A stretch of DNA of 59,897 nt, the filler included, from Dugesia japonica (Eukaryota): assembly GCA_001938525.1 (NCBI GenBank). It is 4 parts of 4 records of this genome, joined end to end, with 100 filler letters (N's around TTAATTAATTAA, not from the genome) between each part and the next. Parts side by side here need not be neighbours in the genome. Positions count along the whole stretch, not along the records: positions 31,364 to 44,982 come from MQRL01638189.1; 3 more parts are not named here. One strand, written 5' to 3'. Every line of letters begins with the position of its first letter. Within the stretch, counting starts at the first letter, position 1. Of the stretch, positions 1 to 50,230 are shown piece after piece. Under the pieces are notes generated by a model that saw only the letters and a list, made by a program, of their open reading frames with translations, was not told the origin of the DNA and did not search any database. A program made the position numbers and the translations under genes.

Positions 1-400
1 TTTCATATTTTAGTGGTGAATATGAAAGTATGGATATTAAATTAGTTTTTGATACTAGTAAAGATTTTGGAGATTCTTGGCTTTCAACATTTTAAAAACG
101 ATGAATTCATTGAAAAAATAAAAATTAAATATTATTATCCGATTGTAACTAAGCATTCTTTTCAATTCGAATCTTAACTATGTATAAAGGATTTAAATCA
201 ACTAAATGACTATTTTAAGAAACACCTTCCAAAGTTATTTAAAACTTTATCATTAAAGCAAGATGAAATATTTGAATTTACATTAGCAAATAGAACTAAA
301 AGTGTTAAATTCGATAAAATCTTAAAAAAAACATTAGGATTAAAAGAATCGCAATATACTCGAATATAATTTAATGATAACAACTACTATATAAAAGTAA
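1..400 (+). pseudogene. Fragment of Polinton minor capsid (penton) gene, second copy
   Basis: Translates with stops/frameshifts as FQHFKNDEFIEKIKIK...KDLNQLNDYFKK...FEFTLANRTKSVKFDKILKKTLGLKESQYTRI. This is colinear with FHDFKNNDSVEKINIK...EDLNQLNENFKK...FEYTLSIKTKNIKFDKILTKSLLLKDPQYTRI at ~40640-40970 (-). Confidence 0.85.
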
Positions 401-404
401 TAAT

Positions 405-720
405 AATAAAAGAAAAAGTCAACAATGCTATGTATTCTTGAAGTAATTGTAATAAAGTAAGAGTTATTGTTTAATTTACTGTTTAATTCTATTTAGATTG
501 AACGGAGTACATCAATGTTACTTAAATCGTCTTATTTCAGTAGAAAATGCCCTAATCGTCAATACTCATACAACAAATTTATGTGGAGAACACTAGATAG
601 TGGTTTACAATAAAAAAAGCAACATTACACATAAAATATTTATTTGCATGTATTTGAATTTTAAAAAATATGTTTTATTATCAAAATGTCTTCATTTTTA
701 ATAATACTAAGAAACAAAAG
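405..720 (+). pseudogene. Possible remnant of Polinton cysteine protease (adenain-like) C-terminus
   Basis: One frame reads NALIVNTHTTNLCGEH*IVVY, resembling the Q-x3-S-x2-CG-x-(Y/H)C motif. 600-720 matches the reverse complement of ~35170-35295, which is preceded by VYNKIVYQDPFT. Very degenerate. Confidence 0.3.
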
Positions 721-958: not shown

Positions 959-1273
959 TTAATTTCGACCAAACAAATAAAATATCACAACAGATGTCAA
1001 TAAAATACCAGCAATAAATTTATTTCTCTTTGGTCTCTTTAATTTTTCTTTAATTTTCTCCATGAATATTGACCGGACAATGCGTTCAACAAAGTCATGT
1101 TTTCTCAATAGGCCATTGTCAATCCTGCTTATAAATTGAATTTCGTCAACGGATTCACTGGTAATTTCATCTGCCAATTTTTTAATTTGTCTTTCCATTT
1201 CATTCATTTCTTCAACTGATCCATTGGTGATTGCATCTGTAATTTGTTTAATTCCCCTTTCGATTTGGTTCAT
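959..1273 (-). CDS. 104-aa tail-anchored membrane protein with a duplicated 22-aa helical repeat, Polinton-associated
   Basis: Intact ORF. Residues 1-22 and 23-44 are repeats; a basic stretch precedes a hydrophobic C-terminus (FIAGILLTSVVIFYLF). A homolog lies at 32294-32541. Confidence 0.75.
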   Translation of the reverse strand: MNQIERGIKQITDAITNGSVEEMNEMERQIKKLADEITSESVDEIQFISRIDNGLLRKHDFVERIVRSIFMEKIKEKLKRPKRNKFIAGILLTSVVIFYLFGRN

Positions 1274-9217: not shown

Positions 9218-9317
9218 NNNNNNNNNNNNNNNNNNNNNNNNNNNNNNNNNNNNNNNNNNNNTTAATTAATTAANNNNNNNNNNNNNNNNNNNNNNNNNNN
9301 NNNNNNNNNNNNNNNNN
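9218..9317. other. Artificial scaffold linker (44 N + TTAATTAATTAA + 44 N)
   Basis: Exactly 100 bp, stops in all six frames, identical at three places. Confidence 0.95.
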
Positions 9318-9690
9318 CCATTTAACAACATCTTTGTATCCATTTAACAACATCTTTGTATCCATTTAACAACATCTTTGTATCCATTTACTTAAATCTT
9401 TGTATCCATTTACCTACATCTTTGTATCAATTTACCTACATCTTTGTATACATTTAACAACATCTTTGTATCCATTTACTTACATCTTTGTATCCATATA
9501 ACAACATCTTTGTATCCATTTAACAACATCTTTGTATCCATTTAACTACATCTTTGTATCCATTTACCTACATCTTTGTATACATTTAACAACATCTTTG
9601 TATCAATTTAACTACATCTTTGTATCCATTTAACTACATCTTTGTATTCATTTAACTACATCTTTGTATCCTTATAACAAGATCTTTGTT
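9318..9690. repeat. 22-bp minisatellite CCATTTAACWACATCTTTGTAT, ~16 copies
   Basis: Units start at 9318, 9340, 9362 and so on. Confidence 0.95.
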
Positions 9691-13319: not shown

Positions 13320-14468
13320 ACAAATTAAGGTGGAAGTAAGGTATATAAGCCTTTAAAGCCAGATAAATACGGAATCAAATCGTATGCACTTTGCGAATCT
13401 AAAACAAGATATGCATGTGCGCTGATTCAATATAATTCTAGAAAACCGGAAACTAATTTAGATATGTAATTGCGGTTAACCAAAAATTACCAAAATAAAA
13501 ACCATCGTCTGTATATAGACAATTTCTAAACTACTGTAAAAATTGTCGAGGTAATGTCAGGAAGAGGTATCTAATGTTGTGGAACTCTTAGGGATACTCG
13601 AGGTGGTCCTAAGAATCTTAAAAAACCGTGAAGCGATTTAAAAAGGGAGAAGGATTGGTTTATACTAATAATTCAATCAACTGTATTGGGTTAATTGATA
13701 ATGATCCGGTAGTGATACTTACTAGTATACATTCGAACATAGTGGACGAGTATTGAAAGTGAGGGGGAAGAGAAATTGAGCAAATCAAATGTAGTTAAAG
13801 ATTATAATTCATATATGGGTGGTGTTGATTTAATGGACCAAATAACTGGATATTGTGAGATTAATAGAAGATCTCAAAAGTGGACAACAAATTTCTGCCT
13901 CCACGTACTCAACATTGCTTTCCATAACAGTTATGTCATATATAAAAAATTAAGTTCAGCTTCTCAGAAAAAAACTTATTTAAATTATCTAATTAAATTA
14001 ATGTATGAGTTGGGAAGGAATAGTGTTGCCGACTTTCTTGAAGAAGAATCTAGAATCATGGCAGTAAATGCTCCACCCGCCTAAGTAGAACAGATTTCTA
14101 ATGGCGCAGACAAAACCAGTGCATTTTCCTATTAGAACCGACAAACGAAAGAAATGTGTGATATGCAAGATATATTCTTCAAGAACTGAAATAAAAACTG
14201 GATGTTCTAAATGTTTGGCTCTTCTATGTTTATTAGGTTGTTTTGAGGAATATCAATATGGGCCTCGAGAATAAAAATTATTTAGTTTAATAATTTTCAG
14301 CAGTTTTTTTTCGATATTTTTTGATTTTAGTAAATATTTAAAAAATCCTTTTTAAGCCCTGTTATTTATTATATATTTTAATATCTAAGCCCCAATATTT
14401 TAAAAATAATTTTTGTTTTTAAAACAAATATTTCGACCCCTAATTGTTTAGTTATAACTGTGAAAGGG
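13320..14468 (+). mobile_element. Decayed piggyBac transposon (C-terminal half of transposase and right end)
   Basis: Motifs KPDKYGIK, LYIDNF*TT, CGTLR, YNSYMGGVDLMDQ and RRSQKW, plus a cysteine-rich tail (KCVIC...CSKC...LC...CF). The end is AAAGGG followed by TTAA at 14469-14472. Confidence 0.9.
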
Positions 14469-22999: not shown

Positions 23000-24680
23000 T
23001 CGTAATTTAAATTATGAGTTCTTTACTTTCTATGTAGTCGTTTCTAATTTTCTATGATGACTTGTGTATTTACCATGATGATACCTGTATATTCTATGAT
23101 GAAGTGTCTATGTTTTGTTATGAAACAATAATTTTCCACGACAAAGCGATTATTTTTCCATGTTGAAGTGTTTATTTTCAATAATGAATCTTATATTTTA
23201 CACGATGACTTATAAATTTAGTGTGTGTTAGAATTTTTTTGGATGAAATGTAATTTTAAAGAGTTTACTTAGAAATTTCAATGTGATGGATTATAAGTTT
23301 AACTGAGTGGTTTGAAATTTTAATTGATGACTTAGAGATTTTATTATTTTCTATGAAATCCTTGAATATTATTGAATACTTCTGTGTAATATAAATAACC
23401 TTTCATTAAAAATATACAATGTTTGAAATTTTTTATTGACTTATATGTATTATTAAATAATCTTAATGACTTCTATATAACTTTAACACAAAGAATTATA
23501 CTTTTTATGTACTAGTTTAGAAATTTAATGTGTCTACTTAGAGTTTTACTGTGATTGAATGCAGTTTTTTGAGATAGAATGCAAAGTTTAGTGTTATTTG
23601 CTACAATTATGTGTGATTGATTGTAATTTTAGTGTGAAAAATTATAATTTTTATGTATTGGCTTAGAAATTGTATGTGCTGACTTAAAATTTTACTTGTC
23701 CAGTTTTATGGGTTGAATTAGACTTTTGTAAAACGAATTTTAATTTTAAAGCGTTGAATTAGAAATTTCAATGTGAGGAACTATATTTTAGTGCGATATT
23801 ATAAGTTTAACTTGTTGGTTAGAATTTTTATGTGTTGACTAAGAAATTTTATGTAACAAAATACAAATTATGTGTTGACATTATACATTTTATGTGTTGG
23901 CTTAAAGGTTTTCTGAGTTGACTTAAAATTTTGTGTAATGAATTATAATTTTAATGTAATGGGTTACAGTTTTATTGTGATGGAATGTAATTTTAGTGTG
24001 AAGGATTAAAATTTTTATGCCTTGACTAAAAATGTTATTACTTGTTTTACTTGTTGAGGGTTAATTTATATGGGTTGGATTAGACTTATGTGAGATGCAT
24101 TATACTTTGATGTGTTGGCTTATATATTTTATTTGACGGAAAATAATTTTAGTGTACGTAATATAGTTTTAAAGTGAATGACAGATTATAAGTTGAACTT
24201 TTTGGTTAAAATTTTTATGTGTTGACTAAGAAATTTTATGTGGCAAAATGTGATGAAATGTAATTTTTGTATGATGAAATTTAATTTTTATGTGTTTGCT
24301 TAAGGTTTTGACATGTTGAATGTTAATTTTTGTTTGACGAATTGTAATTTTTATATGATGGAATGCAATTTTAGTGAATGATAATTATTTTGACTTCGAT
24401 GTAATGTTTTGAGAATTTTTAAAGTTATCGAATACTTCTTTGTAATTTATGAAATATTTGTATGACTTCTATGTATTCTTTGTGTTCAGTTTTAATTTTC
24501 AAGAGTTGAGTAAATATTTTGTGTGATGGATTATATCTTTTATTGTTGATTTTAAAAATTTTCATGAGTTAACTTAGAAATTTTATGTGATTGAATTCAA
24601 TTTTAATGTGATGGATTATAAATTTTATGTATTGGCTTAGAAACTTATATGATTGAATGTAAAGTTTTAAATTCTGTATA
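23000..24680. repeat. Degenerate short-period (~20-bp) array, TTTTATGTGTTGACTTA-like
   Basis: Recurrent motif with G/T strand skew. Confidence 0.7.
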
Positions 24681-24709
24681 ATTATATAAAAAACGTAGAC
24701 AATTATAAA

Positions 24710-29347: not shown

Positions 29348-29369
29348 ACTTTTTTTAAAATAAAATAAA

Positions 29370-29992
29370 AAACAACAATATTACAAATATGATAACAATG
29401 CAATCACAACAAATTATTAAAAAACGTAAAATATCCAAAACATCACTTATAAACAAACGAATGAGACGAAATGGAACAATATTTCAAAAATGATTTGCGG
29501 TAAAACTGAATAAAGTATTTTTGCTAGTCCATCACATCAAGAAGTTATTGAAAATTGTGCATTGTAAGATATGTTTATGATGAATTTAATTTCCAAATCA
29601 CAAAGCAATGTAAAGTTTTTTATATGGATCACAAACTGAATATTTGGATTTGAATGATACTTTATTGTATATTTATGTGAAGGTAGTTGATTGGGCGGGT
29701 AAAAATTTGACTGACAAACATGATGCAGTTCCTAGTAACTATATACTGCATGTGCTTATTAAGGATGTAATTCTTTCATTTAATATTTTCAAAATTGAAG
29801 GTGTAAATGGTACTTGTATTTTAAAAGGCATTCATTGAAACTATATTGAATTAAAGTTGTGACAGTAAAAATAGTGTATGGATTACAGCAAAGGGTCAGA
29901 AGATGACAGAAAAATGTCTATTAAAGCATATAAACCATTGTCTCTATGTGGTTTCTTGCAACTTAACTTCATGGATGAACTGAAATATCTTA
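29370..29992 (+). pseudogene. Polinton fragment: basic tail of the virion protein plus major capsid N-terminus (ATG 29490)
   Basis: KKRKISKTSLINKRMRRNGTIFQK* then MICGKTE*SIF..P..Q..IE...EYLDLNDTLLYIYVKVVD..GKNL...VPSNYILH...LCGFLQLNFMDELKYL; colinear with ~39410-40010 (-). Confidence 0.88.
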
Positions 29993-31263: not shown

Positions 31264-31363
31264 NNNNNNNNNNNNNNNNNNNNNNNNNNNNNNNNNNNNN
31301 NNNNNNNTTAATTAATTAANNNNNNNNNNNNNNNNNNNNNNNNNNNNNNNNNNNNNNNNNNNN
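31264..31363. other. Artificial scaffold linker
   Basis: 44 N + TTAATTAATTAA (31308-31319) + 44 N. Confidence 0.95.
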
Positions 31364-32293
31364 TAATTATATTTATTTAATACTTACTAAAAATAACCAG
31401 AGTGGAGTCTTTGTATATTTTTATTATAAGATATAACCCAAAATAACCAAAGTATTTGTATATTTTCATGATAAAATAGCCAGAGCTAAGCCGATGGATA
31501 TTTACATGATAAAGTATTCAAAGAGGAGAGACTTTGTTTATTTTTTTATTTAAAAAATCATAAAGTGTAGTACTTTTTTTAAAAATAATAAATACCTTAT
31601 AAGACTTTATTAGTAAGTAAATTTTTATTTAAAAGTAACAAGTTTTATTAAATTCTTTTAGGAACGTATAAGTAAATATTTTTTAAAAAGTAAATTTTAA
31701 ANAATTTTTATTAAAATTAACAAGTTTTATTAAATTTCTTTAAAAATGTGACAGTTTTATTTAATTTTAATAAAAATCAAAAATAATTATTAAATTTCTA
31801 TAATAAATATGAATAATGAAATGCAATATATTATATATGCGTAATATATTTAATTACTTAAAAATTAAATTTATAAATTTCAATTGATATAATTTGTACT
31901 TGAGTTGTACTTATATTGCATCTGTATTACGAATTTTCTAAATGGGTTTTCAACCAAATTGAGTAAATTTTATTTAATGTTATCCACAAATCTTTGAAAA
32001 TACAAATCTTTTTTATTGAGAGTATGGGTTTATAAATGTATAGGAATTTTTTAAAAAAAACATGTCCTATTTATATAATTCAGATCATAAAATCATATAA
32101 AATCAAATCATTTAAAACGAATTACATTCAATCATACGAATTAAAATGAATAATAACTATTCATTTACTTTGAAACCGGTAATTTTTTATAGAAACTAGC
32201 AAATAACGAATATGTATGTATGTATCATAGTGAGTAGATAAGCAGTAGTTTTCGTAAAATAAATCAATTTTACAATTCAAAATTATTATCAAT

Positions 32294-32541
32294 ATGAATC
32301 ANNNNNNNNNNNNNNNNNNNNNNNNNNNNNNNNNNNNNNNNNNNNNNNNNNNNNNNNNNNNNNNNNNNNNNNNNNNNNNNGAAAATGGTCCGATGAGTAA
32401 ACTAGACCATTTTGAATTTATTGTCCAATCAATATTCATGAACAAAATTAAGAAAGAATTGGAGAGACAAAGAGAATTAAATTTGTTGCTGTAACTCTAT
32501 TCACACCCATTGTGTTGTTTTATTTGTATAAAAGAAATTGA
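32294..32541 (+). pseudogene. Frameshifted homolog of the 959-1273 tail-anchored protein
   Basis: MN...ENGPMSKLDHFEFIVQSIFMNKIKKELERQR, then in another frame IKFVAVTLFTPIVLFYLYKRN*. About 200 bp upstream also matches 1275-1470. Confidence 0.8.
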
Positions 32542-32899
32542 TGTAGTTATTTTTTATATTGATTAATAAATAGAGATGGCTTATTATCAATCTTTATGAA
32601 ACATTTAGAGTCCGCCTAGTCAAAGTGATTGTAAATAATGGTAATGAGATAAATAAATAGTTACGTGTTGTACATTTTTTTGGATGTTGTCAATAATTAT
32701 GCACATCTGAAAAATAATTTGTGAAACAAAAATGTTAATATTATGAATTTAATTTAAAAGTGTAGTAAATCAATAACTAACATTATTTGAAAAAAATTGC
32801 CTACATCGATAAAAATTGACATTTTCAGGGTTGTCAAAAAACTTTGTCATCAGACCCATTGGTTTCCTGTGTAATAAATCAAATGGTTATTTAAAAATA

Positions 32900-34889
32900 C
32901 AATAAAACCAATAAAGCGTCTTCATTACACGCACTACATACAATGAAAACATATAATACATACACTAAACCGTATGAATCTTATACATTATAAGCCGAAT
33001 GACTATTATACATACAAAACAAAATTAATATGTTTTATGCACACAGAAAACTAAGGAGTATTATACACACTATTAACCCTATAGAGTTATATAATACACA
33101 CACTAAACTCAACAGAGTTTCTTAATTACACACAATAATTCTTAAAGAGTAATAACTACATAATACACTCAATATAGTCGTATAATACATACAATAAACG
33201 TAATAATGTCAAATAACTCACCTACAACAAGCCTTATAATGACACTAAATATACACACAAATAACTCAATTGAACTAGTTAAAACATACAATAAATCCAA
33301 TACAAACAGTTAAATACATACAATAAACCAACTAGAGCCATATAATACACGCAATACATCAAATATACTCATAAAATATACTCATCTCTGTAAATAATGT
33401 TACAGAATCCCAGGGGGAATATTAAAATTTTATACATATTTATCTATCTTTGCATCATAAGTACATGTTAACCAATGAAATGTAAGTTAAACAAAGGACT
33501 GATATAAACTTAACAATTGATTAGTAACGCATTTGTATAAAATTATAGACGATATGATTGAACATATAACTTCACCGGTTCAAGGTAATAATAATAACTA
33601 ATATTAATACAAATAATTATTTAATCGTATCTGATGTTCAAGAAAACGTTGTAGAAATAGTTGGAATAAATTGATCGATAGAGGAAGAAATGAGCGATAC
33701 TCACCTAAATAATGTCATTATTGATGAAGATATACAACCAAATAATGACAATATTGATGAAATATTGTCGGATACACCTACCAATAAGGAAATAACTGAT
33801 TTTCAGTCAATTGAGGAAGAAAATGATAAAGAATTGACTGATAAAGCCACATTGATTAAATTTTCAAGCGTCTAATGCATTTTTTAAATAAATTTTTCTC
33901 ATAATTGTCTTTTGGGTGTTATCTTACATAAATATTTTAATTGTAATACATAGATATTGATAAAATATTTCAAAATTTACTTGAAAGTAAATAAATAAAA
34001 ATTAGAAGTAATATATTATAGAGGCCGGTGAAATATTTTATAAATTAGATAGAAGTCTACAAAAATATATTAAAAATTAAATAGAGGTAATTAAACGCTT
34101 TTAAAAATTACATAGAAGTCTGTGAGATTTTACAAAAAATTACATAGAAATCGGCGAAATTTTCTAAAAATTACATAGACTTCAGTGAAATTTTATAAAA
34201 ATTACATAGAAGTGTGTGAAAATATAACAAAGTACTTGTATGTGTGTTCATTTTTTATTAAATATTACATGTGCAACACGAATGCAATACATATATGCAA
34301 CATAAATACATTTTTAAAATAAATATCATTTTTAAATAATTTTGTCTATTTATAATTTGTAAGTAGTAAAATTTACCATCTGCATCATAAATACAACATA
34401 AAAGAATTTTAAAATCTTTCATAATACTTTTTAAACAATTTTATCTACTTATAATTTGTAAATAGTTAAATACGACATCTGCATCATAAATGCAACATAA
34501 ATATATTTTTAAAATTTTTCATAATCATTTTTAAGTAGTTTTGTCTAATTATAATTTGAAAGTAGTAAAATATAACATCTACACCATAAATGCAGCATAA
34601 AGAAATTAAAAATTCTTTCATAATCAATTTTAAAAAATTTATCCACTTATAATTTATGAGTAGTTAAATATGAAATCTACAACAAAAAGATGATAATTAA
34701 ATGAAAAAAATGAAAATGAAAACCCTGAAATACTTAAACAGGTCCAAAGGTCAAACCCGTACAATTGCACATGGGTCAAAAGTCAAATCCCGAAATCCAT
34801 AAACAAAGTCTAGAATACTTAATTCATAAACACTTTGCCGACAGGGGAAAGAGGGAAAGGGTGTTTATGTGCGCCTTTTTTACACTACT
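32900..34889 (+). mobile_element. Repeat-rich element arm (degenerate acidic ORF, ~33-bp and ~100-bp tandem arrays) ending in ACTACT; paralog of ~45350-47337
   Basis: 33240-33285 ~ 45942-45987 and 33491-33980 ~ 46204-46760. The ~100-bp unit recurs at 34377, 34476 and 34576. Both copies end GTGCGC...ACTACT. Confidence 0.55.
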
Positions 34890-35324
34890 TCTTATGGTTT
34901 CAAAGGTTCAACAAGAATATATTTTTATACTTGTCATTTTCTCTGTATAATTATTAAAAAAAATATATAAAAAATCGTAGATTTTGAACATTCAAAATTA
35001 CATGGTAATTAATTAAATTATACAGTTTATCAATTATATTTAAACTTAAATTTAATTTATATTGATTTATATATAATGAAATTTTCAGACAATAATTTTT
35101 AGATATTATTTTTCAGACATTAATTTTTTATAACATCGGATTTTACAGAATATTGTTATTAATTTGTTTTGCGTTTTCTTAGTAAAAAATAAAAAAAATG
35201 AACAACATTTTTTTGAAATTAAAGCATATATTTTAGTATACTACAAACCCATGCAATAAAATATTTCATTTGTAATGTTGCTTTTTGTTGTAAATGGATC
35301 TTGATATACAATTTTATTGTACAC

Positions 35325-35797
35325 AATTAGTTTTGATAATATCAAAATCTGGAGCAAGAACAAATGTAAAGAAGGGATGATTGTTCTTAAAATCATTAAG
35401 TGTTATTCCACAATTCAGATTCTTATCCAAATATCCCATATTTCTTACTATAAATTGCAATTGAAAGTTAATAATTTAATAATTTGTGTTGTGGTATAAT
35501 TATCGCTTGGAAAATCACGAGTATATATTTCTCGATAATCAGTGTTTTTGTCAAGGAAACAGAAACAGTATCTAGATTTTGAAATGTTGAATTCGAGATT
35601 TTATACTTACCATTATATTGTTCTCCACTTTGAAATGTAACTAGAATAAAATTAGTCAATGAAAGATCACCAAAGATTTGTTCTTTATAAAACTATGAAC
35701 TATTTTTACTATTGCAAATGCGACGTATTCCTTGGTTCTTATCGGATAAATAGCATTTTGCTTTTTTAGTCCTAATTGATGAGCAGCTAATACTGAG
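35325..35797 (-). pseudogene. Polinton major capsid protein (double jelly-roll), C-terminal part
   Basis: SVLAAHQLGLKKQNAIYPIRTKE...QIFGDLSLTNFILVTFQSGEQYNGKY...NCGITLNDFKNNHPFFTFVLAPD fits the MCP motifs AHxxxL..A.YP, NGxY and FDLxPD. Confidence 0.85.
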
Positions 35798-38700
35798 TGT
35801 TAGGTAAATCTTCAATTGTTAATTCATTTTGCAAATCAGAATTCATATTGTTAGAAATTTTTTATTTTACTACTACAAACTATACTTAATNNNNNNNNNN
35901 NNNNNNNNNNNNNNNNNNNNNNNNNNNNNNNNNNNNNNNNNNNNNNNNNNNNNNNNNNNNNNNNNNNNNNNNNNNNNNNNNNNNNNNNNNNNNNNNNNNN
36001 NNNNNNNNNNNNNNNNNNNNNNNNNNNNNNNNNNNNNNNNNNNNNNNNNNNNNNNNNNNNNNNNNNNNNNNNNNNNNNNNNNNNNNNNNNNNNNNNNNNN
36101 NNNNTTCAAATCTGTCTTGGCTTTTATTTTTTGTTTCTACCTTGATGAGTACAAAATGAGTAAGATGAGTAAGAGTAAATGTTCTACCATACAAGTAATG
36201 TTTGAAATGTATACAGAAATAATAAACAGCCAATTACTTCTTTCGTGTAATGCATTAGCCTTTCTCATAACTTGTCATTAAGTGTGATCCATAGGCAACA
36301 AGTCTTTCTCTTCCTTCTTTATCTCTCTGTGACAATACTGCTCCACTTGTATCGAAACTAGCATCTGTATCTAATATAAATTCTTTGTTTATGTCCGGAA
36401 AACACAATATTGTTTCAGTAATTAAAGATTTTTTCAGACCCTCAAAAGTATCGTTTATTTCATCTGTCCATTCTAATTTCTTGTTGCTTNNNNNNNNNNN
36501 NNNNNNNNNNNNNNNNNNNNNNNNNNNNNNNNNNNNNNNNNNNNNNNNNNNNNNNNNNNNNNNNNNNNNNNNNNNNNNNNNNNNNNNNNNNNNNNNNNNN
36601 NNNNNNNNNNNNNNNNNNNNNNNNNNNNNNNNNNNNNNNNNNNNNNNNNNNNNNNNNNNNATCCCTGCTAATTATGTGTCCAAGAAACTTGATTTCGCTT
36701 AGAAGAAACTGACACTTTTCCGGATTAATTCTTATACCAGCCTTCATTATTTCCATCAATACTCTTTCAATTACTTCATAGTGTTGATCTTTGTTGTTCG
36801 TAAATATCAGTATGTAAACAAGATAAACCATGGCTTCATTGATTCCACCTACCACTTTTGTCATCATTTCCTCAAAAATATTTAAATAATCTTCTTTTTC
36901 CTTTTCAATTATATTCAGTATTCTCGTTTTAATCTTCCCTTTCTTGTCCCTGGTGCTGCTGCGATGCCAAATGGCATTCTATTAAAACAATATTGCGCGT
37001 GCTTCGTTGAAAACGCCGTTTTTTCTTGAGATTTGTCTTCGAGCTCTAACTGATAATATGCATTTCCCAAATCTATTGAACTGAAATATTTGGTTCCATC
37101 NAACTTGTTCAGCATTTCATCGACATTAGGCACCGGAAAAGCTTGTCTTTTCGTTACAGCATTCAATTTTCTGAAATCCAAACATACTCTTATGCCTTTC
37201 TTTTCCTTTATCCAAACACATATCAGTGGAGTATTCCCTGGAGAGTTGCATTTCCGGATAATATTATTCTCGAAACGGTATTGGATAGCTTCTTCAATTT
37301 TAGATTCTAAGTTCATTGGTTGTCTTAACGATTTTTCATTGATTGGTTCACCACTTAAGATTATTTTGTGTCTTGTCAGATGTGTGCGTCCTACATCCCA
37401 TTTATTTGCCATAAAAGCATCTTCTTTACTTTCAATTATTTTCAATGACCGCTGATCCTCTTTAATCTTAAAAATATTTAAGGCTCTTTTTAATCGCTCT
37501 CCTTTTTTAATTTGTCTACCGAATTTCGCTTCAATATTACAAATGTAATTTTCTACTTTTCATCCGTTTTGCTGTTAACCTTTCGCATAAGCTGATATCC
37601 AAAATTCTTCTGCATATCTATTCCTTCTATCAGATCTGGTGTTACTCTTTCAGCAACTAAGAAAGTAATCTCTTTGCAAACTTCATCAATTATCATCCCG
37701 GTTTTAACTTTCCAAACAATTTCAAGTGTACTATTATTTGCACAACGCAATCTTTCATCACTCATTTCTAAATTTCCTTATCATAATTTATTAAAACAAC
37801 TCAAACTCATCTCATTAATTCGAGACCCTGTATCTAATAGACATTCTACTTTTTTTCGTTGAATTGATACCGTAGCACTTGGTCTGCTTTGCAATTTATG
37901 GTAAGAAATATTTGTTTTCTTTTTTGCTTCAACTGTTTCAACCCATTCTACTTTTCTATCATCTGCAAAATTTTTCATCTTTAAGAACCTATATACTTTT
38001 CTGTAACTTTTCCTATATCATCCCACTTTTCGACTCCTTGAGAATAATTACTAACTTCATTTAACAATGAATGACTCCAACCTACTCCTCTACTAGTAGA
38101 GCTCTGCCTTTCGGAATCACTTTCATATGCTTCCTCATATCCATCGTTTGTACTAACATCTTCATCTTCAATTGCATGTACTCGATTATATCGGTTTCTT
38201 GATCTTTCTGTAGTCATAAATTTCTCACCTGTTCTTTTCGCTTTCAAATTTGTGTAGCACTCTTCTGCTCTATGTCCACCCTAACCACATTGTTTACACC
38301 TCACTTCTTGACATAACCTTCTAATATGACCAACCTTTCCACAACCAAAACATTTTGTTGGTTTTTTATTTGGACAATCTCGACTTATATGTCCTGTTTT
38401 ATGACAAGTCCAGCACTCTACTCCTTTTTTGTCGGACAATTTACTTTAGTATGACCGATCTTATGACATAACCAACATTCGGTATTTTGTTTTCCCTTNN
38501 NNNNNNNNNNNNNNNNNNNNNNNNNNNNNNNNNNNNNNNNNNNNNNNNTTCGATTTGTAACTCTCACGTAACTTCTAACTGCATCAACTCGATCTCTGTT
38601 TTTCTCTACTCAATCTACTAACATCATCATTTCTTCAATTTCTTCTATATTCTATCGTTTCCGCCAATTCACTTTTTCTTCAACTTTTTTGTTATCTGAT

Positions 38701-39283
38701 CAATATACTAGCATCTTTGCAANNNNNNNNNNNNNNNNNNNNNNNNNNNNNNNNNNNNNNNNNNNNNCTAAATCTTTTACATTTCTAAAATAAACTTGAA
38801 TCTCTTCATTTCCACGTCTGTAGTTAATCAAATTTTGAAAATTTTTGATAAAATCTTTCTTTTTCTCAAATGCCATGCGTAAACGAGCCTGAAAACCTTC
38901 AACGTTTTTCAACGTCTTTGCATATTCTTCCACCAAATCTTCATCTAACAAACAAGAGACTAATCTCTCTTGTTGTTTCACATGAGTGATGTTTTTAGCT
39001 TCAAAATNNNNNNNNNNNNNNNNNNNNNNNNNNNNNNNNNNNNNNNNNNNNNNNNNNNNNNNNNNNNNNNNNNNNNNNNNNNNNNNNNNNNNNNNNNNNN
39101 NNNNNNNNNNNNNNNNNNNNNNNNNNNNNNNNNNNNNNNNNNNNNNNNNNNNNNNNNNNNNNNNNNNNNNNNNNNNNNNNNNNNNNNNNNNNNNNNNNNN
39201 NNNNNNNNNNNNNNNNNNNNNNNNNNNNNNNNNNAATTAACTCAATTTCTATTGGCTCAAAAAATAATAATTATTTCCTCATA
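35798..39283 (-). mobile_element. Ty3/Gypsy LTR retrotransposon (gag-PR-RT-RNase H, integrase not seen) inserted in the MCP gene
   Basis: CCHC knuckles (~38260-38480), LLDTGS, CLDFRKLN, SIDLGNAYYQ, RMPFG and ILDTDAS...FKHYLYGR. CTGAG is duplicated at 35793-35797 and 39284-39288; plus-strand ends are TGTTAGG...CCTCATA. Confidence 0.93.
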
Positions 39284-39921
39284 CTGAGAGTTCAACATGT
39301 ACATTAACTAATAATTTTACATCTACTAATACACATTTAGGCTCATTGGCTGCATTTTCCAATCAAATCTTAGATGATGTTCTTTTCAATTGAATATGAA
39401 CATTGAGACTTGGAATAAGATATTTCGGCTGATCCAGGAAGTCGAGTTGCAATGAACCGCACAGAGACAATTGTTTTGATGTTTTAATAGACTTTTCTAC
39501 CTGCTTCTGATCCATATTCCATTGCTGTAAGACATATATTCTTACTATCACCATTATAAATTATTATAGTTTCAATTAATGCTTTGTGAAGATAAGATCC
39601 ATTCCTACCTTCAATTTTGAAATTATTAACCAAAAGAATTACATCCTTAAACAGTGTATGCACATATAGTTACTAGGAACCACATCATGCGTGTTAGTCA
39701 AATTTTTACCTGTCCTATCAACTTCCTTCACTTTAATATACAATAAAGTATCATTCAGACTCAAATATTCTGTTTTAGATCCATTTATAAGAAACGCTAC
39801 GTCGCTTTGTGATTCAGAAATTAAATTCATAGTAAAGGACATCTTTAAATGTATCACTTTCAATTACAGCTTGTAGAGATAGACGATAAAAAATACATAA
39901 TTCAGTTATACCACAAAGCAT
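39284..39921 (-). pseudogene. Polinton major capsid protein, N-terminal part
   Basis: MLCGITELCIF...QAVIE...FLINGSKTEYLSLNDTLLYIKVK...VVPSNY...LCGSLQLDFLDQPKYLIPSLNVHIQLKR; frameshifted. Confidence 0.9.
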
Positions 39922-40361
39922 TTTTTAAATATTGTTCTATGGCCTCTCATCCGTTTGTTTATGCGTGATGCATGTGATTTTTTACGCTTTTTATTAGTTG
40001 GCTGTGTTTTTGGTTGATTTCTTTTCATATTGCTTATTTTAGATGATATTTTATTTGTTATACTTTGCGGTAATATGTTTGCTACTTTTGGAATCATACT
40101 GTTAACTCCAATAGGTAACAAAGATACTTCATTTCCAAGTTCGGCTAATGTATTAGATTTTAATGTTGATAGTATTTTTCCATTATTTGCTAGTACATTC
40201 TGAGCTGTTATCAAATCAAAAGAACCAATTCGTATTAGAATAGGTTAAGTAAATCTATCTATTGTTTGAAACCAACCAGATCCATACTGTTTTCCAAGAA
40301 AGTAAGGTAATTATCCGCTTGCTTGACTAGTACTCTACAATAATACAATATCAGGATTCAT
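39906..40361 (-). pseudogene. Polinton small virion protein (QxGxG motifs, amphipathic helix, basic tail)
   Basis: MNPD...QASG*LPYFLGKQYGSGWFQTIDRFT*PILIRIGSFDLITAQNVL...KKRKKSHASRINKRMRGHR; lies between the minor and major capsid genes. Confidence 0.7.
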
Positions 40362-43162
40362 TATTAATTTTACTAAATCAGTTTTTGAGTCTTCAGCAAA
40401 ATTGAGTAGTTTTATAGTATTATCTTGTATATTAATTTTTATATTGTTTATATATGATGAAAAATAGGTAAATACATTGGATGATCAACAATTATTTGAA
40501 CTACCTCATCATTCTCCTGTTCTTCTATCTATACTGCTTTTAATAAAGGAACATTAACATCAACAACTAAAATAGGTTCAACAATACTACAATATATGAA
40601 CATTTCTTTATAACACGTTAGTATTCTAGGCTTCATGATACTTTTATATTGTAGATGTTCATCATCAATACGTATTCGAGTATATTGTGGATCTTTTAAT
40701 AATAATGATTTTGTTAAGATTTTATCGAATTTAATATTTTTAGTTTTAATTGATAATGTATATTCAAATAGTCCATCTTTATTTAATTTAAACGTTTGAA
40801 ATAACGTTGATAGGGTTTTCTTAAAATTTTCATTTAGCTGATTTAAATCCTCTTTATACAATTCGGTTTCAAATTGGAAATAATGTTCAGTTACAATTTT
40901 ATAATACTATTTAATATTTATTTTTTCAACGGAATCATTGTTTTTAAAGTCATGAAAACGAATCAAAAAAATTTGATGATCATCGAAATTTATACTATTA
41001 TACTTTCTCTTAACTTCCCTCTCTACCATATGTAAATTATACCAAGTTTTCAAATGTACTGTATTTTCACTATTTGAAGGCAGTACTAGAATAAAAGGCA
41101 GTAAAGAGTTTGATAATATTTGGAAATAGAAGGCAGTGCTCGAATAGAAGGCGGTATAGATTTTAATTAAGAATTTCAATAATTAACAGTATTCAAAAGA
41201 GCAAAATAATGTCAATGAGCCATCTTGAAAAAAGTTGAAAAGACAACATAATATATTTTATAGATTATTTTCCTAAAATCGATTGCCAATAAATTTTATA
41301 TACCTCATTATTTGAAAGTTTATATTACCAAACCGTTAATTAATGACCAGCAGAAGAAAATCATAAAGCATTTAGTATAAAAAAGAGATTGTCAACCAAC
41401 TCGAACATAAGTCGCTTTTTGGAGTGTCAAAAGAAAATAACATTCATATCAGACTAATTTCAAAATGGAAAAGTGAATTCGGGGAGGAACATTTGGGTTA
41501 TCAGTATATGACATGTAGAAAATCTGGAGCTGGCCGCAAGCCAATCATTGAAGAATTGAAGGACAATATCTTCGACATGATTGTAGACAAACGCTACCGT
41601 GGATTGATAGTGAGTCGCGGATATATCCAGGTGTTTGCACTTCAACTTGCGAAGACAGATGAAAGTGGGTTTAAGGCGAGTCCTCATTNNCTTTCTAACT
41701 TCATGAAGAGATTTCATTTGTCTTTGCGTGCACCAACAACCCTGTTTAAAATTCAAGATGATCAGATTGTTGCACGAGCCTTGTCTTACAAGAAGTTTAT
41801 TGAAGATACGAATTTAACAAACTACGGTAATTCTAATATTATATGCATGGATGAAACAGCAGTATATTATGGGGATATCAATCAAAGAACAGTTGACATG
41901 ACGGGAAAAAGTTCTATTTATATTGCGGCAACCAGGTAAGAGTCATTTAGAGTTACATGTATTTTGGAAATAAGGCGTGATGGTACAAAAGTTACACCGA
42001 TGATCATTTCTAAGGGAAAAAAGAATGGAACTTCAAGTATTAACAGTATCGATATTTTTGAAAGCGAGAAAAGCTGGGGAACTCAAGAAATTATCAAACA
42101 ATGGTTGGACAGAAATTTCAAATCAGGATTTTTTAACAACATAAAACATATTCTTGTTTGAGACTCCCCATCCACTCGACGTGCAAAGGGCATGAAAGAG
42201 AATTCGGACATTAAAAAGATATATTCTATTATAATACCATCTGGCCTTACGGCATATCTTCAAAGTCTTGGTTTGCTAATCAACCATCCATTCAAGATTT
42301 ATATTAGAGACGAAATTAATGATTTTATTGAACACCGTATGAAGATAAATGTAAGAGGAAATCCTATCAAGCCAAGTCTTGATGAAGTCATGACGTGGAT
42401 TAAAAATGCCTTGGATAAAATAACACCTGAAGTAGTTAACTATGAGTTTATTGCTTCATACATGCATCCGAGTGCATCTTAGAAGGATTCGGCAATAATG
42501 AAGCATGAAAAGTTCGGTCTTCTTGTTGATAGCCAAAATATGATACAAGTGATGACAGATGCCCTTTTTAAAGAAGAAGACGATGTATTGGTGATTGATG
42601 AATAAATTACATTATCATTAATAAAATTATAAATATTTGTTTTACATTTACAAAAACAAAATAATTATAAACATTCTTTCTAATTTTTATAGAAATTTAA
42701 TAGAAGGCAGTACCCAAATAAAAGGCGATGTAGTATTTTTATAAATTTTTGAAAAGCTGGAAATAGAAGGCAGTGTTTTTCAATAAAGAAAACACGGTAT
42801 CAAATGATAAAACTGTGAAATTTAATATCACAACTAAAGTTGATCTTTTTTTCTTGAATGTTATACCTGTTTCTAAATTATTTTAAATTTATCGTGAGAA
42901 TTAACAGTTAAAAGCCCTTTTTTCTTTTTATTAACATCAAGTATTAGTTCCTTCTCAATTGGTTTAAATAATTCATATTCAATCCTAGATTGACGGTAAA
43001 TTGGCATGGTTGAATATAAAAAGCTGAAATCCATCAACTTTCCAACTACCATCTTGTAAATTGGATTTTGAAGCTCAACAATGTAATTACTAGTAGTATT
43101 ATTTGGATGAACTAAAAGGCTACTATTACTAGGTAAAGTGTATAGAAATTATTGGATTACAT
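40362..43162 (-). pseudogene. Polinton minor capsid (penton) gene interrupted by a pogo-like transposon
   Basis: N-terminus FY-TLPSNSSLLVHPNNTTSNYIVELQNPI..DGSWKV (from 43162); C-terminus MFIYCSIVEPILVVDVNVPLLKAV...MYLPI...IKINIQD. Confidence 0.9.
41059..42797 (+). mobile_element. pogo/Tc2-like DNA transposon, 1739 bp, decayed transposase ~41343-42606
   Basis: TA on both sides (41057-58, 42798-99); imperfect TIRs CTGTATTTTC / GAAAACACGG; subterminal AATAGAAGGCAGT repeats; CENP-B HTH (FKASPHxLSNFMKRF) and DDE_1 motifs (ICMDET, LV*DS, GLTAYLQSL). Confidence 0.92.
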
Positions 43163-43164
43163 CT

Positions 43165-43554
43165 TATTTTTCGTCTTGATTGACTATTTGCGATGCTAAT
43201 ATCCAACTTGGTTTTCGTGCCCATGTCATATTACATAGTATTGTTTATTCTTTCTAGTTCCCATTGATTTAACCGGAACAGCTTTTACCAATCTACTGAA
43301 TACAACCATACATTTCAAAATATACTTGTAACTGTTATTAATTCTTGAATATGAAATCATCTCCATTATTTCCATTTGCCATAATTCATAAATACCATAT
43401 ACTTTATATACTCTTATTAGAAATCTTTTCAACATAGGTTTGTCAGATTCTCTTTTCTTTTCGATTTTTGAGCTGTTTTCATCAATTTTTCAATGCATCA
43501 AAAGCCTGCTAGGCTTTTTGGATCCGTTTATATTGTTTTTATTTTTGTCTCCAT
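43165..43554 (-). pseudogene. Polinton RVE integrase with C-terminal chromodomain, catalytic core largely deleted
   Basis: METKIKTI*TDPKSLAGF...RVYKVYGIYELWQMEIMEMISYSRINNSYKYILKCMVVFSR..AVPVKS is joined directly to QYYVI*HGHE..SWILASQI. Confidence 0.85.
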
Positions 43555-43770
43555 TACAACAATTCGATGCGAATTCCATGTCAAAATTAGATATTGATTG
43601 CATTGGATGCATTCAAATCTACATTACCACGAACAATATTTATAATATTCTCAAGTAAATCATTTATAAAATATGGCGGGAATGATTATAAAATTCTCAT
43701 TCTCAAAGATTTTGATGATTTAATCAATGTAGTAAAAAACGGAATACTTCTTTGTAATTTCATATTAATT
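43555..43770 (-). pseudogene. Conserved small Polinton protein (PW-like, tentative)
   Basis: MKLQRSIPFFTTLIKSSKSLRMRIL*SFPPYFINDLLENYINIVRGNVDL resembles the L..L......R..IL......I....E...N...GNV.L pattern of Polinton small ORFs. Confidence 0.55.
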
Positions 43771-44033
43771 AAATTATACATACCATTTATTTGTTTATAA
43801 TGATATTTATTCATCATTCTCAGTTTCTTTTTGCTAGTTTTTTTAATGATATTTAATTGCTACCTTTTATTTACCCGCGGCTTCTTATTTAGACGATGTT
43901 TCGTATGCGATTGCTTTCTATTTTTTGATATGTTTTCTTCGTTAAAGATATTATTTACCATTTAACAAGACCAATAGTTACTTGATCAACTACAAATTTC
44001 TTTAATTTGGCCATTTTTATAATATTAAGAAGA

Positions 44034-44666
44034 TTACCTATTTTGTTTATATACTGTGATACCGTTTGGATTGAATATATCTGTTCTCACTCTATAGTCA
44101 TCTTGAAATTGTTATGTACAGTCAAGAAATACATATCCATGAGGTATTTCTGTTGCATCTTGAAATGATTCAATCAGGAATTGTCTGTTATTAGGATATG
44201 CTTGTCTTGCTAGAAAATCAACCACAGTTTGATCTCTAGAATTTTTGAATAGAATCAAGATTTGCAAATTTAAATTGTGTGTTCTATGACTACCTTCTTG
44301 ATGAAATAGATTTTGAGTAATAAATATCACAGTCACATTACGATGTCTCGATATCCATTGTAAATAAATTATTGAAATTTCTTTCTTTATTTGCCTCCTG
44401 ATACAGATCAACAATAACATAACCTGGTCTCAATCTTTTGTTCCAATTTTTATCAAACCCACTTATAAATTTCATTTTAATACTACAAAATTCAGATTCA
44501 GTGAGACCATTCTCTTCATCTGCGCCTCTATACCAGTATATGTTTTTAAATTTCGACATGAATAAATTTGATTTCAATAATTTATATACAAAGTTTTTTC
44601 ATTATCACTAGACCCAATAATTTGATAGACTGCATCATTTCTTAATTTCTTTTTAGAATTTTTCAT
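44034..44666 (-). pseudogene. Polinton A32/FtsK-like DNA packaging ATPase
   Basis: Decayed Walker A IIGSSDNEKT and Walker B YVIVDLY, then SRHRNVTVIFITQNLF, LILFKNSRD, PHGYVFLD and YRVRTDIF. Confidence 0.92.
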
Positions 44667-44917
44667 AATTTATTACATTGTTTATATTTTTTTTATCGGA
44701 TCAATTAAATTAATTCCGTCAAAATCCAAATGTTCCTCATTAATTATGATAACTAATATTAATTTCAAAGGTGAAATGTTGCAAGAAAATGAGCTTTTCA
44801 ATATGTTAACACTGTCAATTCAAAGGTAAATGTGACATGTATATGATTACTATACTATTTTGAATGTCCAAAATCTAGGATGGTTGACATATTATTAAAT
44901 AATTATACAATCATATC

Positions 44918-44920
<3 letters not shown>

Positions 44921-44982
<62 letters not shown>
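44921..44982. repeat. (AAT)n microsatellite at scaffold end
   Basis: Seen directly. Confidence 0.98.
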
Positions 44983-45082
44983 NNNNNNNNNNNNNNNNNN
45001 NNNNNNNNNNNNNNNNNNNNNNNNNNTTAATTAATTAANNNNNNNNNNNNNNNNNNNNNNNNNNNNNNNNNNNNNNNNNNNN
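44983..45082. other. Artificial scaffold linker
   Basis: 44 N + TTAATTAATTAA (45027-45038) + 44 N. Confidence 0.95.
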
Positions 45083-47899: not shown

Positions 47900-50230
47900 T
47901 TTTTTGAGGTTTTGCGAGTATAAAGATTTTAGATGAAATTTCAACAATCTTTGTAACTAATGGTGTAAGGAGCAAAATTATAAAAGAATCTTTTCTTTTT
48001 AACCAGAACTTACTGATATGCATAGAAAAGAATTACTCAATAATTTGGATAAATTAATACCGACATATTNTGTTAATGGGGTACAAACAGCTGTGTAGAT
48101 ACAATAAAGAAAGATGATTATCAGTCAACGTTTTCAAAATGTCATCCACGATTGAATGCTTAAAACGATCCAAGTACTAGAAATCGACCAGTTTTTTTCA
48201 AAGAGAACCAGTATTGTGCAAATGAAATTTAGACCCAAAGATGGGCCAAATCAAAAGTTTTACTCGATACTCGATGAAGTCTTTTGCCAATAAGCTTTAT
48301 TGCAAAGCCAAAGAAAAGAATCCTCCTAGAGAAAAGTTTAGGCATATCTCCAGAAGCATGTTTCTGCTGTAGAGATACAAGACATAAAAGAATGAATTGT
48401 CCGTTACAAGACAAATATGTGGATAGAAAGATCTTAATTTTTGAGATTGTCCAATTATTCGAATAAGGAATTTTACATATCCGAAGATTTTGTGTATAGC
48501 AGAAAAAGATATCCTATAGTGGTGAAAAAATTGAATACATATACGATGTTCCTTCAATAGATGATGATGCAAAAAAACTATCAGAAACCCGTTGCATCCA
48601 TTTCCTCAGTGAGGTTGCAATAACATAGAAAATACTCCTAGATAAAAATTTGATGTTTGATGATAAGATGTTTTAGTAGAGATATGAAAGAGAATAGAGT
48701 TTAATACTTTGTAATGGATATAATAATTAGATGTTATGGGATTCAGAAGCAGCAATATCAGGGCAGAGGTTTGGAGGAGAAATAGATCACCTTAATTATT
48801 ACCGTCACACAATGTTCTAGAAGGAGATTTTTCTGTAAAAGAAGAAAAATGAAGGGTGAAAATTAAACTGAAATTACGATGGAATGGGAATTTAGAGTGA
48901 ATGAAATAATAACTGTTAGAATATTTTGTCTCATATTTATTGGATGTGTTGATATGAAGAATCTATTTGAAATGAAAATAACTTAAGTTGATTTTATTAA
49001 CTCAAATGATAAAAATGCATTTGATTATAATCCAGAAGGAGTGAAAAATGGCTTTAATACTTCAAGTAATATCAATTATGAAGTAAAAGAAATAATAGAA
49101 ACTTACAAAGATATATTTATGACATTAAGATTTGATCTTGGATATACGAAACTAATGCAACATCACATTGAAACGACAGAACTTCCAATAGTGATAAACC
49201 CAAGAAGACACATAATGCACTTGGAAAATAAAATAGATGAATTTTTAGTAAATCTTAGAAAATCAAATCTTATAACAAGTTGCAGAAGTCCATAGAATTC
49301 CCCAATGGCCATGAATTTAGAAAATTGAATTCAATTACAGAAAGTATTTGTTTCCAGTTACAGATATTCAAATATTATTAGATACACTTAAAGGATCAGT
49401 TATATTTTCTTCTTTAGATTTGAGGCAAGCATATTATCAAATTGAACTCAACTAAGAATCAAAACTGAAGACGGCCTTTAGTATAAAGATACGTCAAGTT
49501 TGTTTTAATCAAACGCCCTTTGGATTATGTACTTCACCAGCAACATTTCAAGGCTTGATCCATAAAATATTTTAAAGAATGTTGTACAAAGGATTATTAG
49601 TATATCTGGATGATATTTTAATATATGGTAAAACTAAAACAAACGAGTTTGTAAAGTTTTCAGCTACCAAATAATGCAGGCTTTAAAATGAATCCCAGTA
49701 AACTTTTATGACATAGAAATAGCGCTAAAGATTTGGAGTCAAATTACGAAACCATCAAATAAAATTGAGAGGCCGTAACGCCAGAAAACGCCATGCAAAT
49801 ACGAATGTTCTTAGAATTAACAAATTATTAAAGGCGTTTCATAAAAGATTATGCTTTATTGGCAGCACCATTGTAAGTAGTGACAACTGGACAAGAAGAA
49901 AGAAAACATTGTAAAGATAAAATTGTGCAGTGCACCGATTTTGACTTTCTCAAATAATATGGGCGAAATGATTTGAATACTAATGCTAGTTTTGGAACAG
50001 GTGAAGGGGCTTTGAGTCAAATAGCGGAATATGGATTGAAACAGATCATATCACATTGTTCTCAAATTTTAAAAAATCACAAAGAAGGATATTGTGCTAC
50101 TTGCAAGGAATTGTTAGCTCTGCGTGCGTTTATGAAGTATTTTAAACACTATTTGTATGGCAAGAAATTTAGAAAAAGAACGGATCATAAAGCATTGACT
50201 TTTATGTTATTTGGAATTACAATTAATTTA
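47900..50230 (+). mobile_element. Heavily decayed Ty3/Gypsy gag-pol
   Basis: CFCCRDTRHKRMNC knuckle, LWDSEAAIS (protease), QHHIET...SP*NSP, FSSLDL..AYYQ, YLDDILIY, KELLAL...FKHYLYGKKF..RTDHKAL. Confidence 0.9.

Follow-up and report, generated by a model that had tools for sequence, protein, structure and literature searches.

A decayed Polinton/Maverick copy with a remnant virion gene row in the genome of Dugesia japonica

The window analysed here, 59,897 nucleotides (nt) joined from four records of the Dugesia japonica genome assembly GCA_001938525.1, carries in one of its pieces (positions 31364-44982, from MQRL01638189.1) a row of decayed minus-strand genes that we read, with a probability of roughly 0.84, as a dead, broken copy of a Polinton/Maverick element, which integrated, ceased to be under selection and decayed through point changes, deletions and insertions. 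It is likely one of very many copies, and icosahedral virions are predicted for its intact relatives. The original prediction for this region had proposed a Polinton- or adintovirus-like endogenous virus with a reconstructable virion module at 35170-44900; the gene row is borne out below and its interpretation in part, with the exception of the word reconstructable, of the explanation for the missing PolB and of several details.

Relatives were sought with a 105-amino-acid piece of the window's ATPase, which matched 25 of 42 candidate proteins; 24 of the 25 were aligned, and the alignment led to metagenome loci, with 156 of 399 stretches confirmed and the best 80 used (viral contigs as a source of relatives gave 0 of 20 stretches, and one distant locus from 600). 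Profiles built from the intact metagenome relatives were then searched against the window. They match collinearly along the minus strand, from 44651 down to 35170, in the tightly packed order that had been predicted, namely ATPase, small open reading frames (ORFs), integrase, penton, glycine-motif protein and major capsid protein, followed by a weak scrap of protease, with no match for any of the 12 profiles in the reversed window used as control. The order from ATPase to capsid is the same in all eight loci that reach the capsid gene among the 11 longer, closer loci displayed. The row, which we call the main copy, comprises the following features.

44040-44651, minus strand: packaging ATPase (A32/FtsK type), profile match with an independent E-value (iE) of 4e-54, broken at two places, Walker A not intact
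43860-44014, minus strand: candidate small Lys/Arg-rich ORF, broken, placed as the small basic ORF of relatives by position only, no profile match
43521-43784, minus strand: conserved small ORF of unknown function with several stops (iE 7e-18; 41 homologs among the fetched loci)
43457-43603, minus strand: weak remnant of a small Cys-Cys ORF (iE 8e-4) that in relatives overlaps the integrase start
43164-43551, minus strand: integrase relic, N-terminal part (profile match 43444-43265, iE 4e-22) and weak chromodomain remnant
42800-43162, minus strand: penton (minor capsid) 5' part, broken (profile match 43148-42858, iE 7e-10)
40374-41058, minus strand: penton 3' part, broken (profile match 40963-40374, iE 3e-26)
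39921-40361, minus strand: small glycine-motif (GSGW) protein with a basic tail and three stops, between the penton and capsid genes (iE 9e-30)
39284-39921, minus strand: first part of the major capsid protein (profile positions 1-216), its frame broken several times (match 39921-39282, iE 2e-33)
35314-35797, minus strand: major capsid protein, profile positions 214-368 (match 35799-35317, iE 5e-22)
35170-35348, minus strand: probable C-terminal scrap of the maturation protease with the DNA that follows it (weak, 4.5 bits)

As had been claimed, no gene is whole: every profile-matched gene of the main copy has stops, frame breaks or both. What is left varies from gene to gene. The ATPase (209/211 profile positions) is 62-79% identical to the 25 ATPases, 21 of which match PF04665 (Pox_A32), and the glycine-motif protein covers all 113 positions of its profile, with its GxxW block invariant. 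The penton covers 286/339 positions and the capsid protein 368/407, its C-terminal 40 or so residues being gone. The proposed integrase-chromodomain gene persists only as a remnant: 115/348 profile positions are present, positions 111-316 are gone and most of the catalytic core with them, and a local search gives the chromodomain a weak match of 5 bits. With two thirds of the integrase, some 40 residues of the capsid protein and the bulk of the protease (22/124 positions remain) lost from this copy, to call it reconstructable was an overstatement. The module does extend towards 35170, but the last 170 bp or so are not capsid, showing instead the weak protease match and DNA (35175-35294) that matches positions 604-714, in a protease-bearing copy described below (copy A), at 74.6%. 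Where a single small ORF had been noted between ATPase and integrase there are two or three; the profiles of the basic small ORF and of a small gene following the protease had no match in the window. The abutting starts and stops are real, with TAA-G-ATG at the integrase/penton junction (43166-43160) and an ATGA overlap ahead of the capsid gene in a second partial copy (copy B, at 29490-29493), the same gene pair being joined by ATGA in five of eight relatives.

The assignment of this row to the Polinton/Maverick morphogenesis module is supported jointly by the profiles, by the gene order of the relatives and by their domains. Among 30 relatives' proteins scanned with Pfam, matches were found to Pox_A32, rve (PF00665, in one case together with Chromo) and Peptidase_C5 (PF00770, in the protease of locus L032). 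Polintons (polintoviruses; Krupovic, Bamford and Koonin 2014, PMC4028283) share a double jelly-roll capsid protein (PY), a penton (PX) one gene away, an FtsK/A32 ATPase, an adenovirus-like protease and an rve integrase. The intact metagenome relatives hold the complete virion gene set, so that a virion-capable lineage, as proposed, is predicted from gene content. The gene for the glycine-motif protein is present, but its label as a virion protein comes from position only: we infer such a role from its place between the penton and capsid genes, which agrees with the penton gene usually lying one gene from the capsid gene (PMC4028283). No named family was matched by this protein in the Pfam scan of the relatives, and Atlas gave unnamed clusters only.

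The jelly-roll folds that had been anticipated are found in predicted models of proteins from relative L013, not in models of the window's own genes. The L013 capsid candidate, with 118 homologs among 1974 candidates (none named), gave a model (107 sequences; predicted local distance difference test, pLDDT, 92; predicted template modelling score, pTM, 0.89) resembling the major capsid proteins of iridovirus, PBCV-1, mavirus and Sputnik (best E 5e-15, template modelling score 0.64), and it also matches adomavirus and bracovirus proteins. The penton model (15 sequences, pLDDT 86.5, pTM 0.53) resembles the pentons of mavirus, Sputnik, PBCV-1 and adenovirus (best E 1e-8), with Z scores of 13.9, 12.8, 12.8, 12.6 and 11.1 against a background near 5. 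The relative's capsid protein is thus predicted to be a double jelly-roll and its penton a single one. Sequence similarity and gene order tie the window's genes to these folds. Searched against the sequences of solved structures, the capsid profile had no match.

Several observations weigh against our reading. The folds belong to L013, to which the window's capsid and penton are only about 35-42% and 29-36% identical, and intact elements are known from the metagenome relatives rather than from host copies. In the Pfam scan of the window, run on 29 stop-to-stop pieces, names were obtained for the Gypsy and pogo transposons treated below and for nothing else, with no Polinton piece above cutoff, and a 74-amino-acid piece of the window's capsid, used as query, found no homolog among 15 candidates. 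A PolB profile from nine relatives had no match anywhere in the window, nor were canonical termini or a 6-bp target duplication seen there. The abundance of the family in the host is judged by summed contig depth, which gives no copy number and can be read as "very abundant" only. Finally, a 66-bp inverted repeat around the module could mark a different, mobile unit.

For want of PolB the main copy is a relic of a Polinton and not a complete member. The original prediction had noted this absence and suggested that the gene probably lies beyond the scaffold break, a linker that begins at 44983, on the ATPase side. This is the weaker explanation. In the two close relatives with a visible PolB (L006 and L013, both in the group that ATPase scores put nearest to the window), the gene lies downstream of the capsid gene and on the other strand, while in seven more distant loci it is upstream of the ATPase. 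Because the close relatives have PolB at the end opposite to the scaffold break, where the window runs on for about 3.8 kb to the next linker with no break and no PolB match, it is more likely that PolB was lost by deletion. The relatives' PolB-like ORFs (L006:10212-13907, L013:9125-12391) carry an endonuclease VII-like domain, the only domain that Pfam gives for the 1089-amino-acid ORF of L013, which is PolB-like by Atlas (score 0.99). They fall below PF03175 detection at E 0.01, their Atlas neighbours carry PF03175 in 18-40% of members, and a relative's PolB searched against PDB sequences had no match.

The lack of PolB and accessory genes on both sides of the module is also what would be expected of a non-autonomous, PolB-less derivative that kept the capsid module between the inverted repeats (34944-44909) and was copied in trans by helpers before it decayed. 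The two arms are:

34944-35009, no strand assigned: inverted repeat arm 1, one arm of a 66-bp repeat with 79% identity, a possible terminal-repeat remnant
44846-44909, no strand assigned: inverted repeat arm 2, the other arm of the 66-bp repeat bracketing the module

They bracket exactly the module, with a score of 61 that none of 646 null windows reaches (best null 47). No target duplication lies beside the arms, however, and there are no AG..CT ends of the kind given for vertebrate Mavericks (PMC8097293). In addition, 34913-35339, which holds one arm, is represented in DNA runs X2 and X6, from different studies, by one identical contig of single-copy depth (about 9), whereas other contigs diverge at 35341, so that this end looks private to the copy; depth in the bin of the inverted-repeat arm is low (319 and 593), and copies A and B lack different parts. 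We therefore consider such a derivative improbable. Five long relatives showed no terminal repeats, their contigs probably being incomplete.

Our preferred reading, a dead copy in the host genome, draws further support from two transposons inserted where the original prediction had indicated interruptions (35798-39288 and 41059-42799), give or take one target-site copy:

35798-39283, minus strand: Ty3/Gypsy retroelement in the capsid gene, with zinc knuckle, protease and reverse transcriptase, a 5-bp target duplication and N gaps near both ends
41059-42797, plus strand: pogo-type DDE transposon in the penton gene, with HTH_Tnp_Tc5 above cutoff and DDE_1 below

The Gypsy element measures 3486 nt as assembled and shows zf-CCHC, RVP (below cutoff) and RVT_1 in that order; integrase and full long terminal repeats were not seen in it. 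In runs X2 and X6, contigs that join 35801 to 39305 show that there are copies without it. The pogo element (1739 nt) is flanked by TA on both sides and has degenerate terminal inverted repeats with 18 of 30 letters alike. Insertions with target duplications, together with the many stops, argue that the scaffold holds a germline insertion and not a free virus or an assembly error. The scaffold piece does hold several N gaps and ends at 44983, and the close relatives do come from metagenomes, but every run holding the stretch bears one organism label (12 runs from five studies have all or part of 39300-41050; no RNA run is among the runs listed for it), and identical single-copy contigs cross the downstream junction in two studies, so that this junction is real. 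An origin outside the germline is thus very unlikely.

Two further fragments of the family lie elsewhere in the window, in which three of the four pieces each bear a Polinton fragment.

29356-29992, plus strand: copy B, with 76.6% identity to the main copy, comprising the end of the glycine-motif gene, the ATGA overlap and positions 1-170 of the capsid protein
77-714, plus strand: copy A, a piece of the penton gene with 80% identity to the main copy, then the N-terminal half of the protease (498-629)

The three copies are 75-80% identical and different parts have gone from each. The protease half of copy A (iE 9e-10, local search) was absent from the original account. A stretch at 1034-1207 (minus strand) matches (E about 2e-7) a 97-amino-acid ORF that immediately precedes the ATPase gene in L003, L005 and L006, and it sits in a short duplicated stretch with counterparts near 32100-32570.

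In the host, the Polinton family seems to be very abundant, about as abundant as a Gypsy family: in run X2, summed contig depth was 3e4-2.5e5 in 13 Polinton bins against 1.4e5-6.7e5 in ten Gypsy bins, with 4e2-1.5e3 in six pogo-dominated bins, 3e2 in the flank and about 9 in unique contigs. Most contigs aligned to the stretch were less than 95% alike. Maverick expansions in animal genomes have a precedent (10.64898/2025.12.11.693146). RNA reads on the stretch (5463 in X14 and 333 in X17) might suggest domestication, with the capsid, the ATPase or another part of the module now serving the host, yet every profile-matched gene is interrupted, and since only 31/5463 and 0/333 reads are at least 99% alike to the copy and both strands are represented, the reads come mostly from other copies, expression of the main copy is not supported and domestication can be largely discounted.

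If the dead copy is what we take it to be, its history would follow established Polinton biology, in which replication is by protein-primed PolB, integration by the rve integrase, and capsid, penton, ATPase and protease serve an icosahedral particle (PMC4028283; PMC6431247). The ancestor would have replicated with such a PolB, would likely have integrated by means of its own rve integrase, and could have used the ATPase to package its DNA into a capsid of double and single jelly-roll proteins, which the protease would mature. After insertion, the copy would have decayed neutrally, with deletions removing PolB and the accessory genes as well as the core of the integrase and the junction between the capsid and protease genes.

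What remains differs from published Polintons in having no PolB, about 4.3 kb of element DNA as opposed to 15-20 kb, and no clear termini. Split capsid genes are common in Polintons (13/72, PMC4028283). In vertebrate Mavericks (Barreat and Katzourakis 2021, PMC8097293), 96% of loci are degraded, with stops, frameshifts and secondary insertions as here. The core gene set of the relatives is the same as that of the adintoviruses, now Eupolintoviridae (Starrett et al. 2021, PMC8502044; renaming PMC12451622), of which degraded germline relics, one of them human, have been described (PMC8502044). Affiliation is probably with the Beta adintovirus type, because the relatives' PolB misses PF03175 at E 0.01, as would be expected of the divergent Beta class. 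Both Polinton virion modules and degraded copies have thus been published already (PMC4028283, PMC8502044, PMC8097293), and this relic is a new but ordinary copy. The best predicted-structure match to the L013 capsid (E 6e-26, 22% identity) is protein R9XLG5 of Cotesia sesamiae Mombasa bracovirus, a distant protein in another genomic setting, and one that we take to derive from a Maverick inside a bracovirus. A Cotesia bracovirus circle is among the maps of the PMC8502044 supplement.

The relatives themselves have an unexpected protease gene. In six of the nine examined after the capsid stop (L006:9194, L008:5598, L012:7450, L013:8479, L016:5262 and L017:5232; L016 and L017 are near-identical), it likely starts with a 5-nt micro-exon followed, from a GTAAGT donor 4-10 nt past the capsid stop, by a predicted intron of 37-47 nt. 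The predicted spliced frames have 113-122 amino acids, and without the intron five of the six (all except L012) have no in-frame ATG ahead of the catalytic His. Across both strands of 19 loci (234,540 nt), the start-plus-donor motif turns up only three more times. No such intron was seen in L032, L068 and L079. At the corresponding place (440-500), copy A shows decayed letters resembling a donor and an acceptor; they are ambiguous, with two candidate donors. Intact vertebrate Maverick genes are, in contrast, reported to lack introns (PMC8097293). We found no report of a spliced protease in the literature on introns or TATA-binding protein (TBP) in Polintons, a search that left aside Repbase, Kapitonov and Jurka 2006 and part of the PMC8502044 supplement, and the intron may already be annotated in that supplement.

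A TBP-like gene (PF00352, E about 1e-17) was observed in 13 of the fetched loci (for example L006:2420-2866, L013:2175-2618 and L032:6502-6966). None was found in the window by profile search, a weak match (iE 0.008) on the wrong strand having been rejected. TBP-like genes have been noted earlier in related viruses (10.1101/697771), and TBP- and TRAF-like genes in MELD viruses related to adintoviruses (PMC8502044). Accessory genes of the relatives include a dual-specificity phosphatase, a TRAF-like protein and a ubiquitin-conjugating E2 (L002:190-702, L002:1545-2729, L006:225-719), and L006:5616-7684 holds two penton-like genes in tandem. There is about an even chance that the relic belongs to an undescribed animal polintovirus clade, hugely amplified in this host and intact in metagenomes, with a spliced protease (the 5-nt micro-exon and 37-47 nt intron) and its own TATA-binding protein.

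The window as a whole is AT-rich (GC mainly 17-33%) with numerous N gaps. Its four pieces are separated by 100-nt linkers (9218-9317, 31264-31363 and 44983-45082), N runs flanking a stop-rich 12-mer. Minisatellite arrays are found at 9318-9689 (22 nt), 23200-24700 (21 nt) and 34290-34680 (99 nt), along with several 31-32 nt arrays, and there is further transposon debris, namely a piggyBac-type DDE_Tnp_1_7 piece at 13743-14081 (plus strand) and a reverse transcriptase RNase H piece at 49958-50230 (plus strand).

The locus is one more Polinton fossil, and it shows that ORF-based annotation misses such relics. Maverick particles have long been sought, and a family that seems so abundant, in a host whose public DNA and RNA runs are numerous, is a place in which to look for them. 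A protease intron conserved in close relatives, for its part, would account for the gene being so often overlooked or described as truncated, and suggests that splicing controls capsid maturation; splicing, if it does take place, would be a switch for that maturation, available to the virus or its host cell, in a group of which the intact vertebrate members are reported to lack introns.

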